Positions 2,246 through 12,961 of a DNA stretch of 13,399 bases are shown here, piece after piece. The stretch's first letter is position 1, and each line of letters begins with the position of its first letter. The position numbers and the translations under genes are program-made. The notes beneath the pieces were generated by a model that saw only the letters and a program-made list of their open reading frames with translations, did no database searches and had not been told where the DNA came from. The DNA comes from a virus (taxonomy: Duplodnaviria > Heunggongvirae > Uroviricota > Caudoviricetes), in the IMG/VR virus record IMGVR_UViG_2667527582_000004; one strand, 5' to 3'.

Positions 2246-2300
2246 TGTGTATTGCAATGTGTATTGCAAATTGGCGATCGGGATGGGTGTGTATTGCAAA
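2246..2300. repeat. three direct copies of 12-mer TGTGTATTGCAA upstream of int (candidate integrase arm-type or operator sites)
   Basis: Perfect copies at 2246-2257 and 2258-2269 (tandem) and 2289-2300. Variant copies of the same 12-mer recur at 12938-12961. Confidence 0.6.
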
Positions 2301-2317
2301 TCTCTTGAGGGCTTTTA

Positions 2318-3559
2318 ATGGCTATTGAAAACAAACTCAGTGACAAACTGTTAAAGAGTCTTGTCGGAAAACGGCAGGACAAACAAAAAACAATAGCGGA
2401 TGGGCGCGGGTTGTCTGTGCGTGTAAGCATGGTTGGGGGGATCAGCTTTGTTTTTTACTATCGTCTTGGTGGCAGGGAATCCCCTCCGGTATGGCTTACA
2501 CTTGGTCGCTATCCTGACATGTCTCTTGCAACGGCCAGGCGCATGCGTGATCAGTGCCGTGAATGGCTGGCTGAAAATCTGGACCCCCGCAGGCAAATAA
2601 AACTTGCTGCCGAAAAAACTATGCAACCAGTGACCGTAAGGGATGCGCTGTTTTACTGGTACGACAATCACGCCACAACAGCCAGAAAAGAGCATGAATA
2701 TTTAATAAAACGATTTGAAAAGCATATCTTCCCCTATATCGGTGATATGGCTATAGAACAGTGCAAATTACACACATGGCTTACCGTCTTTGACAGGATC
2801 AAAAAAAATGCGCCTGTTATGTCTGGTGCAATTTTTCTTGATATCAAACAGGCGTTGCGTTTTTGTCGCGTCAGGCAATACATCGCGTGCGATCCCTTTG
2901 GAGATATTAACGTAAGTTATGTCGGGCGCTCATCCGGTATAAGGGATCGCGTTCTTAATATCAATGAAACCGCTGATGTATGGTCTTATGCTTACGGTAA
3001 TAATTTGCTAACTCTGTCATCAATATATAACCGAAGAATAATGGTTATCTGCCTGGTGTTTGGTTGCCGACAGCAGGAGGCGAGGCTATCCACCTGGGAC
3101 GAATGGGATTTAAAAAACTGGGTATGGACAGTCCCAAAAGAGCACAGCAAAAACAAGGAGGCTATAGTAAGGCCTGTTCCTGACGGAATAAAACAATGGA
3201 TCGTTAATCTTTACGCAGAAACAAAAAATCGCGGTTATGTTGTCGGTTGTGCTTTGCAAAGGGCGACAATAACAGGGGCTGCAAACAGAATATGCAGGCG
3301 TCTTGGTCATGATACTAATGGCTTGTGGTGCATACATGATTTCAGGCGCACATTTTCCACTACGCTTAATGATATGGGGGCGGATCCTTATATTGTCGAA
3401 CTTCTTTTAGGTCATAAAGTGAAAGGGGTTGCTGGTGTTTACAATAAAAGCAGGCATATAAAGAAAAAACTTGAGGTGCTTAATATGTGGGTTAATTACC
3501 TTAATACGATAGCAGGATTTAACAACAACGTTATCGAGCTTAATAAAGAGGTGGTGTGA
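2318..3559 (+). CDS. int: tyrosine recombinase / integrase, P4 family
   Basis: 413 aa; N-terminal arm-binding region resembling P4 Int (GRGLSVRV...FVFYYRL...LGRYPDMSLATAR); C-terminal catalytic region with HDFRRTF and LLGH...GVY motifs (His-x-x-Arg and catalytic Tyr). RBS GAGGG upstream of the ATG. Confidence 0.93.
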   Translation: MAIENKLSDKLLKSLVGKRQDKQKTIADGRGLSVRVSMVGGISFVFYYRLGGRESPPVWLTLGRYPDMSLATARRMRDQCREWLAENLDPRRQIKLAAEKTMQPVTVRDALFYWYDNHATTARKEHEYLIKRFEKHIFPYIGDMAIEQCKLHTWLTVFDRIKKNAPVMSGAIFLDIKQALRFCRVRQYIACDPFGDINVSYVGRSSGIRDRVLNINETADVWSYAYGNNLLTLSSIYNRRIMVICLVFGCRQQEARLSTWDEWDLKNWVWTVPKEHSKNKEAIVRPVPDGIKQWIVNLYAETKNRGYVVGCALQRATITGAANRICRRLGHDTNGLWCIHDFRRTFSTTLNDMGADPYIVELLLGHKVKGVAGVYNKSRHIKKKLEVLNMWVNYLNTIAGFNNNVIELNKEVV

Positions 3560-3560
3560 T

Positions 3561-3818
3561 ATGGCAATTTATTCTCTTGTTGATGAAAACGATTTGCGCA
3601 CAATGAAGGACATTGATCGGTTCATTCGTGAAAAAGAGTGCATAGCACTTACCACGCTGGCAAACTCAACACGCTGGAAAATGGAGCAGGCAGGTAAATT
3701 CCCGCGACGTATCAAGATCGGTGAACGTGCTGCAGGGTATCGACTTTCAGAGGTTCAGGCATGGATCCGTGGTGAGTGGCATCCTGGATGGAAACCTGGA
3801 AAAACAAAACAGCAATAA
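3561..3818 (+). CDS. alpA: AlpA-family HTH protein (excisionase / transcriptional regulator)
   Basis: 85 aa; HTH segment CIALTTLANSTRWKMEQAGKFPRRIKIGERAAGYRLSEVQAWI is typical of the AlpA / Vis family. Start 2 nt after the int stop with RBS AAAGAGGTGG. Confidence 0.82.
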   Translation: MAIYSLVDENDLRTMKDIDRFIREKECIALTTLANSTRWKMEQAGKFPRRIKIGERAAGYRLSEVQAWIRGEWHPGWKPGKTKQQ

Positions 3819-3830
3819 CCAGTAAATAAT

Positions 3831-3854
3831 GCCCCTCATCACGAGGGGTTTTTT
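3831..3854 (+). terminator. rho-independent terminator after int-alpA
   Basis: Stem CCCCTC / GAGGGG with loop ATCAC, followed by TTTTTTG. Confidence 0.75.
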
Positions 3855-3874
3855 GTCTATAAGGTAAAAACGCG

Positions 3875-11280: not shown

Positions 11281-11389
11281 CTTTTTCGGGTGCTGGTGGT
11301 GGTTTTGTTGTTCGCTCTATCTCTATGAATAAAAAGGAAAAGATAAAGCCAATACACCAACCTGAAACATTACTTAAGTGGGGATATTG

Positions 11390-11860
11390 ATGAAATCGCA
11401 CCTGATGAACAAAAAAAACATGGCGCAAAGCTGCCGTGTAAGTGCGACAGCGTTCGACAAGTGGGGAGTGACTCCCGTTGAACGTAAAGGCCGCGAGGCG
11501 TTTTATGATGTTGCCAGCGTAATAGACAATCGGGTTAGCAATGCAATTAACCAGATTACAGACGACAAAGGCGAGATTGATGATGATGAACTCCTACGAG
11601 TCAGGATCAGATTGCTGACAGCACAGGCAGAGGCGCAGGAGCTTAAAAACGAGCGCGAACGCGGCGACGTTATTGATACAGCGTTTTGTATATACGTGCT
11701 TTCAAAATTGGCGAGTCAGATTTCTTCAATCATGGACAGCCTGCCGCTTGCCATGACAAGGAAGTTTCCCGACATGAAGCCGTCTATGCTGGATGGACTG
11801 AAAAAGAAGTTATCAGAGCCTGTAACGCATGCGCAAAACTTGACGAAAACATACCGCTGA
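11390..11860 (+). CDS. terminase small subunit, lambda Nu1-like; C-terminal region frame-shifted relative to lambda (possibly truncated or a pseudogene)
   Basis: N-terminal two-thirds align with lambda Nu1 (LTAQAEAQELKNERERGDVIDTAFCIYVLSKLASQISSIMDSLPLAMTRKFPDM versus lambda LTRAQADAQELKNARDSAEVVETAFCTFVLSRIAGEIASILDGLPLSVQRRFPEL). After FPDM the Nu1-like C-terminus (SRHEAVY...LDENIPLMLSDYLMETAG) continues in the -1 frame (track ORF 11686..11931), while the in-frame reading ends at 11860 with an unrelated tail. Start 11390 chosen for RBS GGGGA. Confidence 0.8.
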   Translation: MKSHLMNKKNMAQSCRVSATAFDKWGVTPVERKGREAFYDVASVIDNRVSNAINQITDDKGEIDDDELLRVRIRLLTAQAEAQELKNERERGDVIDTAFCIYVLSKLASQISSIMDSLPLAMTRKFPDMKPSMLDGLKKKLSEPVTHAQNLTKTYR

Positions 11861-11942
11861 TGCTGTCCGATTATCTGATGGAAACTGCCGGAAACGTACC
11901 GGATAAGTTGCAGCCGAATAAAGATAAGTAACGTAGTACGCT

Positions 11943-12224
11943 ATGACTGAATCCGAAATACTGCGATTAATCCGCCGTGCTTGTGGAATCAGCAAGCAGC
12001 ATGACGAACAGGCCACGCAGCCGGACAGCGTGACCGCAGATAATTATGTGCGTGTAGTGGCTGAGGTGATGCGCCGTGACGGTATTGAGCTTAACGGCGT
12101 GGATATGCGCAACATACGAACAAGAGTCCTTGAGTTGCTGGCATATCGTCGCCGTTCTCAACAACGGAGGGAGAGCGCGAAAAATACTTACCAGTGGAAG
12201 AAGCCGGAACGATTGCGGCGGTAA
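11943..12224 (+). CDS. hypothetical protein (93 aa), basic C-terminus
   Basis: ORF begins 12 nt after the -1-frame Nu1-like stop; weak RBS; no family recognised; it sits where lambda would carry gene A. Confidence 0.4.
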   Translation: MTESEILRLIRRACGISKQHDEQATQPDSVTADNYVRVVAEVMRRDGIELNGVDMRNIRTRVLELLAYRRRSQQRRESAKNTYQWKKPERLRR

Positions 12225-12472
12225 CTTGCTGATATTCCCGATAACGCAAAATTGCGCTGGCTGACTTGTTGCATTGCAAAAAGTTAAGCAGGAAGGCACG
12301 GCCTGTAAGATGGGATGCAGTAAGTAGTTCAAGGCTACCTTGTGCTGGCACGCACAGTTAAGCCGTCGGTGCTGGATATCCCCCACTGGGGGAAAAGCTG
12401 GCTACATCCCTCACATCTGAGGACTGATAACGCGACATTGCGCTGGCTGGCAAAGTGCAAAATTGCACGATG

Positions 12473-12607
12473 GCCTAACCCATTGATTATTTCGAAAACC
12501 TGCAATGCAGGAAATCGGGGAAGTAAGCCTAAGCTATTGATTGTTTCGAAAACCCCCATTGGGGGATGTCGGGAAAGTAAGACTAACCCATTGATTCTTC
12601 CACAATC
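12473..12607. repeat. 2.5 copies of a 54-bp tandem repeat (27-bp conserved half plus 27-bp palindrome-bearing half)
   Basis: Conserved halves GCCTAACCCATTGATTATTTCGAAAAC (12473-12499), GCCTAAGCTATTGATTGTTTCGAAAAC (12527-12553), GACTAACCCATTGATTCTTCCACAATC (12581-12607); the intervening halves carry CTGCAATGCAG and CCCCCATTGGGGG and share the tail TCGGGRAAGTAA. Confidence 0.65.
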
Positions 12608-12937
12608 CTCAATTTGAGGAGGCCGGAACGTCTACATAGCTGCATCGCCGTAATGATGATTCAGCCCACCAGCCAAATCAGCACAGCAACGACAGAATAG
12701 CCCGACACAGAAAAACCACGAATATGGGGTTTTTGTTATGACATGGTCATGATGACCACTCATACAAAACAGGTAAAGCCCACCAGCCTGATTAAAGGTT
12801 AACCGGAAAAAAGCCAGGTATCCAATCTCGATATGGGGATCCCTATATCGACATTAACGCCCACTAAAACTGTGCATATATGCATAGAAAAAGCATCCAC
12901 CAGCTTTATGACGGATGCCGCTCATCTTATAAATAAT

Positions 12938-12961
12938 CGTGTATTGCAGTGTGTATTGCGA
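12938..12961. repeat. two tandem variant copies of the TGTGTATTGCAA 12-mer (candidate arm-type sites at the other end of the element)
   Basis: CGTGTATTGCAG (12938-12949) and TGTGTATTGCGA (12950-12961), in the same orientation as the three copies at 2246-2300. Confidence 0.5.

Follow-up and report, generated by a model that had tools for sequence, protein, structure and literature searches.

Helper-embedded phage-inducible chromosomal islands (HE-PICIs) were described by Tommasini, Mageeney and Williams (2023, NAR Genom Bioinform 5:lqad036; PMC10111431), and include the site group B:Phage_portal_2:241, which integrates into the portal gene of lambdoid prophages at codon position 241 of the Phage_portal_2 profile and whose identity block is aaggcgat. 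A doubled motif, tgTGTATTGCantgTGTATTGCa, was located 81 ± 2 and 132 ± 2 bp from the attP centre, and its binding by either the integrase arm domains or AlpA was proposed. Helper-induced excision/mobilisation was shown experimentally for 11capE only (PMC10111431).

The window analyzed here, i.e., the whole stretch of 13,399 nucleotides, contains an element that shares with the portal-241 HE-PICIs (e.g., Eco10269.11 and Eta10.10): (i) the portal site, the aaggcgat block and the attL/attR strings; (ii) the doubled tgTGTATTGCa motif, one per attP arm and co-oriented; (iii) the order int-alpA, Bro-N, replication zone and late zone with captured capsid genes; (iv) the orientation, which is that of the helper late operon. 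Nothing essential is different. The element type, the portal attachment site and the doubled TGTATTGC motif were all published in 2023; as a discovery the locus has little weight, and its value lies in annotation. The segment 2118-13041 is an HE-PICI of the portal-241 group, and its five GTGTATTGC half-sites are probably arm-type sites bound by the integrase (Int). Two small points are added to the published work: a fifth half-site conserved in the portal-241 clade, and the occurrence of the same layout, with the variant motif GTGTATCAC, in a non-embedded hpt PICI.

Boundaries and target of the element

The window is composed of three unrelated contigs (asnB with a cut tRNA-Met, the element, and gadB) linked by 10-N spacers:

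2108-2117 (no strand): 10-N contig join; the DNA leftward of it (asnB, 5' part of tRNA-Met) is unrelated to the element
2118-13041 (+): HE-PICI, site group B:Phage_portal_2:241; 10,924 bp, the 8-bp identity block being counted once
13042-13266 (+): 3' fragment of a lambdoid portal gene (cognate of lambda B), interrupted and co-oriented with int
13267-13276 (no strand): 10-N contig join; the DNA rightward of it is gadB

The match to complete genomes begins exactly at 2118, i.e., directly after the left N-run. No complete tRNA was found in the window by ARAGORN, and the sole tRNA match of Rfam is cut and ends at the N-run. The missing 3' end of this tRNA is too long for 10 Ns, thus the N-run is a join and not a mask. 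Across the element, Rfam gave no match at E <= 1. A tRNA-integrated island, with the tRNA as attB, was rejected: the tRNA-Met fragment is on a separate contig, and all complete genomes examined have the element in the portal gene. A repeat of the tRNA 3' end was not found at the right end of the window. The original prediction had framed the element by this tRNA, which does not hold since the N-runs join unrelated loci and the target is the portal gene of a lambdoid prophage. For annotation, the useful outcome is that the island only seems to be linked to a tRNA, because N-runs join separate contigs.

The element is contiguous in 53 complete E. coli genomes, within the split portal gene, and both junctions are visible in the complete genomes L001 and L002. 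The int and attL region always adjoins a portal gene. In the draft copy of the window the left junction is absent and terS has a 1-nt deletion; the portal-gene placement in this strain is given by the right junction, which is in the window, together with the complete genomes elsewhere. The element is a satellite, and the head gene that it interrupts in its helper prophage is an essential one. The gene order is int, alpA, Bro-N, ylcI-like, icd-like, DUF4222, primase, SSB, lambda E-like capsid, D-like decoration, a second AlpA-like HTH, cosN, Nu1-like TerS and one hypothetical. With gene families that include the D5_N/DUF5906 primase, Phage_cap_E and HDPD, this is the Gram-negative PICI layout (integration, Bro, replication and late zones).

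The attL of L002 reads GTGAAGGCGAT followed, across the junction, by TTATGTC, and the comparison of attL and attR yields the 8-bp block AAGGCGAT. The window lacks the attL copy of the core, since the contig breaks off immediately before 2118. The attachment features are:

13030-13046 (+): attR core, CATAAAGGCGAT followed by GTATG; identity (crossover) block AAGGCGAT at 13034-13041
2118-2122 (+): TTATG, start of the element past the missing attL core, used in the reconstructed attP
2208-2223 (no strand): palindrome TGATGACCGTTCATCA, in the P' arm between core and doublet; conserved

The last T of the block plus TTATG form the right core-type half-site TTTATG, and the reconstructed attP thus has the inverted repeat CATAAA-GGCGA-TTTATG. 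The core-type half-sites (CATAAA and TTTATG) differ from the arm repeat GTGTATTGC. The att strings are identical to those of Eco10269.11.B_Phage_portal_2_241 (supplement, PMC10111431), and those of L003 to the strings of the published member Eta10.10. A comparison with an empty site had been proposed as a check: the rebuilt site occurs uninterrupted, at 100% identity, in intact portal genes, and over 3000 genomes gave matches. The att core had been supposed to be hidden in the N-runs or outside the segment. Only the attL copy is missing, at the left contig end; the right core is visible and directly followed by the portal 3' fragment. The repeats themselves had been taken as candidate boundaries of the element; its boundaries are farther out, 128 bp leftward of the left cluster and 72-80 bp rightward of the right one. 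The check fixes them at 2118 and 13041, with the 8-bp block as the place of crossover.

Repeats in the two arms of attP

The three 12-mers upstream of int and the two variant copies in tandem at 12938-12961, all co-oriented, were confirmed where they had been predicted:

2246-2257, 2258-2269 and 2288-2299 (+): exact copies of TGTGTATTGCAA
2246-2269 (+): P'-arm doublet, TGTGTATTGCAA twice without mismatch; its start is 128 bp past the identity block
2288-2299 (+): fifth half-site, a single exact TGTGTATTGCAA; 18 bp separate it from the doublet on its left and another 18 bp from the int ATG on its right
12938-12961 (+): P-arm doublet, two half-sites; ends 72 bp before the identity block
12938-12949 (+): P-arm half-site 1, CGTGTATTGCAG; 2 mismatches
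12950-12961 (+): P-arm half-site 2, TGTGTATTGCGA; 1 mismatch

All five copies, each on the + strand (three in 2246-2299, two in 12938-12961), contain the 9-mer GTGTATTGC without mismatch, and no further exact copy was found in the window on either strand. The starts are 12 and 30 bp apart in the left cluster and 12 bp apart in the right one. The doublets are about 76 bp (P) and about 132 bp (P') from the centre of the 8-bp block; the upstream value (~76 vs. ~81 bp as published) depends on the placement of the centre and of the motif end. In its text and legend, PMC10111431 describes two doubled motifs (four half-sites) and does not mention the fifth half-site at 2288-2299.

GTGTATTGC is the commonest 9-mer of the window, and a multiplicity of at least 5 was reached by some 9-mer in 13 of 300 Markov simulations. 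With at most 1 mismatch it has 10 matches vs. 3.5 expected, a number reached in 1 of 200 shuffles. The 12-mer with at most 3 mismatches is not enriched in the window (19 matches vs. 16.4 expected), thus the signal depends on the exact core and on its placement.

Nearly all E. coli carriers have an int region of at least 99% identity. This uniformity makes covariation impossible to follow within the species, and other genera were therefore used. Copies and spacing are kept in elements of Edwardsiella tarda, Serratia quinivorans and a metagenome, whose Ints are 88%, 77% and 69% identical, respectively, and which are also at the portal gene; relatives with Ints 51-55% identical are in other late genes. 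The GTGTATTGC motif is common to elements with Ints 51-100% identical. In the three-way alignment of attP (window, L003 and L006), 45 of the 45 columns of the motif are invariant vs. 121 of 306 elsewhere, and the palindrome at 2208-2223 is the second most conserved block. L003, L006, L008, L009 and L012 keep the P-arm doublet, with 70-77 nt between it and the block, and the P' doublet is at 128-130 nt in every site group examined. The 2+2 layout and its spacing are also found in three other site groups (portal_227, capE_80 and CLP_protease_110). The fifth half-site has a narrower distribution: L001-L007 (Int 69-100% identical) have it at an unchanged spacing, and it is absent from that position in L008, L009 and L012. 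Between the second P' copy and the int ATG there are 58-61 nt in the portal-241 group vs. 23 nt in the other groups.

Integrase, AlpA and the reading of the repeats

Two candidate readers of the repeats are encoded side by side:

2318-3559 (+): tyrosine integrase, 413 aa; N-terminal arm-DNA-binding domain PF13356 at E = 3e-17 (residues 7-94), PF00589 at E = 1.7e-14
3561-3818 (+): AlpA-family excisionase/regulator, 85 aa; PF05930 at E = 5e-14; phrog_2790, excisionase

The N-terminus of Int matches the solved N-domains of integrases (PDB 3ju0 and 3jtz). Across site groups, residues 1-95 are 64-70% identical to those of the Int of the window, and the rest is 46-53% identical; a conserved N-domain with a diverged remainder fits a shared arm motif and differing core specificities. 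The mechanism that we propose is the following. Int would recombine the attP core, CATAAA-GGCGA-TTTATG, with the portal sequence GTGAAGGCGATGTATGCC, the crossover taking place within AAGGCGAT. The five co-oriented half-sites (two on the P side; three on the P' side, immediately before int) would most likely be bound by the N-terminal arm domain of Int. Given the constant spacing of these sites from the core, Int protomers seated on the core could reach across to the arms and assemble the intasome. As the P' cluster is directly before int, Int could also dampen its own expression. In KplE1, IntS acts as an autorepressor, and its arm-type P' sites overlap the promoter of intS (PMC2951348). A promoter scan found no sigma-70-like site in the P' arm of the element, so that the idea of autoregulation is without a mapped promoter here.

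The repeats were originally predicted to be arm-type sites rather than a target-site duplication, and this is the interpretation retained: they occur in both arms, co-oriented and at fixed distances from the block, and Int has an arm domain. The same reading is offered in PMC10111431. Chance recurrence, target-site duplication or transposon-type terminal repeats, i.e., repeats unrelated to site-specific recombination, deserve hardly any credit. The lack of enrichment of the 12-mer and the multiplicity of 5 obtained for a 9-mer in about 4% of simulations are in their favour, but chance is excluded because the copies are conserved across genera, perfectly and at the same spacing, amid diverged flanks. 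The copies are also in tandem, internal to the element and away from the junctions, where the true repeat is AAGGCGAT; target-site duplication and terminal repeats were rejected accordingly. It is quite improbable that the repeats are operators through which another regulator (of the satellite, the helper or the host) acts on int or late transcription, with no role in synapsis. Three copies are 18-72 bp upstream of the int ATG, both clusters are upstream of int in the circular form, and "some unknown DNA binding protein" was allowed for in PMC10111431. However, what stays constant is the distance to the crossover block (128-130 nt), not that to the int start (58-61 vs. 23 nt), and no promoter-like site overlapping the repeats was found.

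A role of the repeats as sites of the AlpA-family excisionase/regulator (RDF), for directionality or control of int and without the arm domains of Int, is a more serious alternative, though an unlikely one. AlpA was named as the other possible binder in PMC10111431, and direct repeats about one helical turn apart are typical of RDF sites according to the abstract of PMC7498355. AlpA is encoded beside int and is 57-77% identical among motif-bearing elements vs. 38% in the hpt PICI. Since AlpA is conserved and diverges in parallel with the motif, covariation cannot separate Int from AlpA as the reader. The characterised RDF sites of lambda, P2/186 and KplE1 are on one arm, whereas equal doublets are here on both arms. 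Moreover, four half-sites at a fixed distance from the core suit a tetramer of heterobivalent Int, the N-domain is the best conserved part of Int across site groups, and the palindrome at 2208-2223 is available as a separate, conserved site for AlpA; it may be the site of a second protein, e.g., AlpA or a host factor. Int rather than AlpA thus appears as the probable binder of the repeats. Simple constructs to tell the arm domains of Int from AlpA are offered by the fifth half-site and by the variant hpt motif.

The negative result of the sigma-70 scan in the P' arm speaks neither for nor against autoregulation; it fits the published idea that int is transcribed from the helper late operon.

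Arm layout in related integrase systems

The element resembles lambda and KplE1 (CPS-53) IntS in having short direct repeats in both attP arms, distinct from the core-type sites, and Int has, like lambda-type integrases, an N-terminal arm-binding domain. The lambda arm-type sites are P1, P2 and P'1-3, i.e., a 2 + 3 count equal to that of the portal-241 clade. The int gene reads away from attL, as in KplE1, which places the P' sites just upstream of int. Unlike in lambda-type systems, the motif has another sequence, the arm domain of Int is PF13356 and not of the family of the lambda domain, and binding is here predicted. The target also differs from those of lambda and KplE1: it is a phage late gene disrupted by integration, not a restored tRNA or host gene.

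The integrase of satellite phage P4 is in the same broad clade as the Int of the element. In P4, the Int repeats flank the attP core, int adjoins attP, and Int and Vis repress int; P4 differs from the element by its tRNA-Leu target, its P2-type helper and the sequence of its repeats.

The non-embedded Gram-negative PICIs (hpt and fis of PMC10111431; the capsid-forming type in L011 and L013) have a related Int (46% identical), AlpA and primase, but their late zone holds a full HK97-type head module. The hpt PICI (Int 46% identical) has the same layout as the element, i.e., tandem doublets 12 bp apart in both arms, at 65 and 137 nt from the core; its motif is GTGTATCAC and not GTGTATTGC, and it integrates at the start of hpt, a chromosomal gene. 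It is conceivable, although we would stop short of calling it likely, that this arm scaffold is general to the wider clade of PICI/P4-type integrases rather than peculiar to HE-PICIs, the sequence of the half-site co-evolving with the integrase. Such a scaffold would consist of tandem half-sites 12 bp apart in both arms, roughly 65-77 and 128-137 nt from the block. The half-site would vary by lineage (GTGTATTGC in HE-PICIs, GTGTATCAC in the hpt PICI), and sub-clades would add sites, e.g., the fifth half-site. If this is true, arm motifs could predict the att geometry and the specificity classes of integrases across satellites.

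Location and limits of the element

The window is chimeric: it consists of three unrelated contigs, and both 10-N runs between them (2108-2117 and 13267-13276) are contig joins:

1-2107: piece 1, with asnB and a tRNA-Met gene that the join truncates to its 5' part
2118-13266: piece 2, satellite and portal fragment, a single block in complete E. coli genomes, which match exactly from 2118 to 13265
13277-13399: piece 3, gadB

In complete E. coli genomes, piece 2 is located within the portal gene of a lambdoid prophage similar to DLP12 (order: nohD, terminase large subunit, head-tail joining gene, portal 5', element, portal 3', S49 protease, decoration and capsid genes). 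Of 5426 genomes, 65 match the int plus attL region with 95% identity or more; among 40 spread matches, all those covering at least 90% of this region overlap an annotated phage portal gene. This location and the nature of the N-runs lead to the conclusion that the tRNA adjacency is an assembly artefact: the tRNA-Met is on a separate contig, and the tRNA-linked island, with the tRNA as its boundary, has to be abandoned. Every contig break falls in sequence that E. coli genomes carry in more than one copy; several matches per genome were found for gadB and for the portal region, and the tRNA-Met at the break of piece 1 is duplicated (metT/metU).

The attL of the complete E. coli locus L002 is GTGAAGGCGAT followed by TTATGTC, and the attR of the window (13030-13048) is CATAAAGGCGAT followed by GTATGCC. 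Their comparison and the rejoined portal gene define the crossover (identity) block AAGGCGAT. Rejoining the portal halves through this block gives a 600-bp empty site, which was looked for as originally proposed and is found uninterrupted, at 100% identity, where the portal gene is intact; matches over 80% or more of the 600 bp are present in more than 3000 genomes. The att core had been expected in the N-runs or outside the segment. This holds for the attL copy, just left of 2118, lost at the contig end, and not for the attR core, which is in the window. The element extends over 2118-13041 (10,924 bp). Reconstruction of attP gives a core that forms a perfect inverted repeat, CATAAA-GGCGA-TTTATG.

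Layout and conservation of the repeats

The 12-mer TGTGTATTGCAA has exact copies starting at 2246, 2258 and 2288 and variant copies at 12938 (2 mismatches) and 12950 (1 mismatch), all on the + strand; sequence search confirms the original observation of one co-oriented 12-mer at both ends, three times on the left and twice on the right. On the two arms of attP (P and P'), tandem pairs (doublets) and a single copy (half-site) are arranged in this order:

12938-12961, + strand: P doublet, ending 72 bp before the identity block
13034-13041: identity block AAGGCGAT
2246-2269, + strand: P' doublet, starting 128 bp after the identity block
2288-2299, + strand: single fifth half-site, 18 bp from the P' doublet and 18 bp from the int ATG
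2318, + strand: int ATG

Given these distances, the repeats are not the element boundaries they were thought to be. All five copies share the exact core GTGTATTGC, which is otherwise absent from the window in exact form and is its commonest 9-mer. Its count at up to one mismatch was equalled in 1 of 200 shuffles, and some 9-mer reached a multiplicity of at least 5 in 13 of 300 simulations. The statistical support from the window by itself is only moderate; the comparison with related elements settles the reality of the repeats.

Elements at portal genes whose integrases are 88% (Edwardsiella tarda, L003), 77% (Serratia quinivorans, L004/L005) and 69% (metagenome, L006/L007) identical to that of the window have three left copies, spaced as in the window, and two right copies wherever the right end is present. 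In the attP alignment (window, L003, L006), 45 of 45 motif columns are invariant vs. 121 of 306 other columns. Integrases 51-55% identical are found in other late genes, i.e., another portal site (L008), capsid gene E (L009/L010) and a ClpP-capsid fusion gene (L012). In these site groups the same motif occurs in 2 + 2 copies; the P doublet ends 70-77 nt before the block and the P' doublet starts 128-130 nt after it (measured in L008 and L009, not in L012). The fifth half-site is conserved in the portal-241 clade; in the capsid gene E element L009 an additional, degenerate copy is found instead, 18 bp upstream of the P' doublet.

L004 (9852-13700) and L005 retain only int, alpA and the P' arm, and the adjoining portal gene is truncated; next come an MFS transporter and a type VI secretion cluster. 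They look like decayed helper-satellite composites. TGTATTGC also occurs in reverse orientation inside int (2875-2882, - strand, 557 nt past the ATG); it is kept in L001-L003, L006 and L007, not in L004/L005, likely through coding constraint.

Helper-embedded phage-inducible chromosomal islands (HE-PICIs) were defined by Tommasini, Mageeney and Williams 2023 (PMC10111431), who mapped 491 of them at 14 sites in lambda late-gene cognates. Their site group B_Phage_portal_2_241 (identity block 'aaggcgat') includes an Edwardsiella member, and its attL/attR strings are those of the window element. They describe a doubled motif, tgTGTATTGCantgTGTATTGCa, whose co-oriented occurrences lie 81 +/- 2 bp before and 132 +/- 2 bp after the centre of attP. 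The match is full, thus the finding is already known, its functional reading being a hypothesis there too; the conserved fifth half-site is a small addition. The doubled motif is called unique to HE-PICIs (PMC10111431). A non-embedded PICI integrated at hpt (the hpt PICI; L011/L013, capsid-forming type), with an integrase 46% identical, lacks TGTATTGC; both of its att arms carry tandem doublets of GGTGTATCACTC, at 65 and 137 nt from the core ATGAAACATA, the same layout as in HE-PICIs:

L011 9950-9975: GGTGTATCACTC doublet
L013 10287-10307, - strand: GGTGTATCACTC doublet
L013 25687-25707, - strand: GGTGTATCACTC doublet

From this one element, the arm architecture seems wider than HE-PICIs.

Proteins that may read the repeats

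The integrase Int (413 aa, 2318-3559, + strand) combines a tyrosine recombinase catalytic domain with an arm-DNA-binding domain at the N-terminus (PF13356, E = 3e-17); this terminus matches two integrase N-domains of solved structure, 3ju0 and 3jtz. An AlpA-family gene lies directly 3' of int. The P' arm also contains a palindrome, a candidate attP site for a second protein:

2208-2223: TGATGACCGTTCATCA, kept in L003, L004 and L006 with 1-3 changes

By eye, differing inverted repeats appear to be present at a similar position in the other site groups and the hpt PICI.

The repeats are probably arm-type sites, which the N-terminal domain of Int would bind. Besides Int having the right domain, equal doublets on both arms keep a fixed distance to the crossover block, not to the int start. 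Residues 1-95 are 64-70% identical across site groups vs. 46-53% for the remainder, as expected with a shared arm motif and diverging core specificity. The separate conserved palindrome, which could serve AlpA, is a further reason to favour Int. It is unlikely that AlpA is the reader, though its conservation also tracks the motif and sites of directionality factors (excisionases) are often direct repeats about one helical turn apart (PMC7498355). The arm-site interpretation originally put forward is plausible from these comparisons and agrees with the published hypothesis. KplE1 IntS offers an experimental precedent for P' arm sites in front of int that repress it (PMC2951348). The promoter scan found no sigma-70-like promoter in the P' arm, in keeping with the proposal of PMC10111431 that read-through transcription of the helper late operon extends into int.

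Late genes and non-coding region of the satellite

In the Nu1-like small terminase gene, one nucleotide of an A-run is deleted (A5, not A6; 11795-11809, A-run 11801-11805) relative to L001 and L002, otherwise identical there, so that a 180-aa ORF is split in two (11378-11860 and 11686-11931). Either a sequencing error or true inactivation of the gene may account for this. Between this gene and the second AlpA-like gene lies a copy of the lambda cohesive-end sequence:

11245-11256: exact GGGCGGCGACCT

As in lambda, cosN is followed by Nu1, and the site is probably the satellite's own cos site.

Satellite head genes (window 9402-10793, L008 12890-14710, L012 16445-18361, L009 17097-18488) match the helper's type in each case: lambda E-like and D-like in the window, a ClpP-capsid fusion with ClpP-capsid-fusion helpers, an E-D fusion at the capsid gene E site. 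This fits late-gene capture as in PMC10111431.

A non-coding stretch of about 800 bp, without Rfam match, precedes attR. Within 12225-12660 are found two copies of GATAACGC-N5-TTGCGCTGGCTG and the following units:

12473-12634: three tandem 54-bp units, each with a short hairpin

The stems differ by unit (CCTGCA/TGCAGG, CCCCCA/TGGGGG, CCTCAA/TTGAGG), and the region folds much better than shuffled sequences (z = -3.67).
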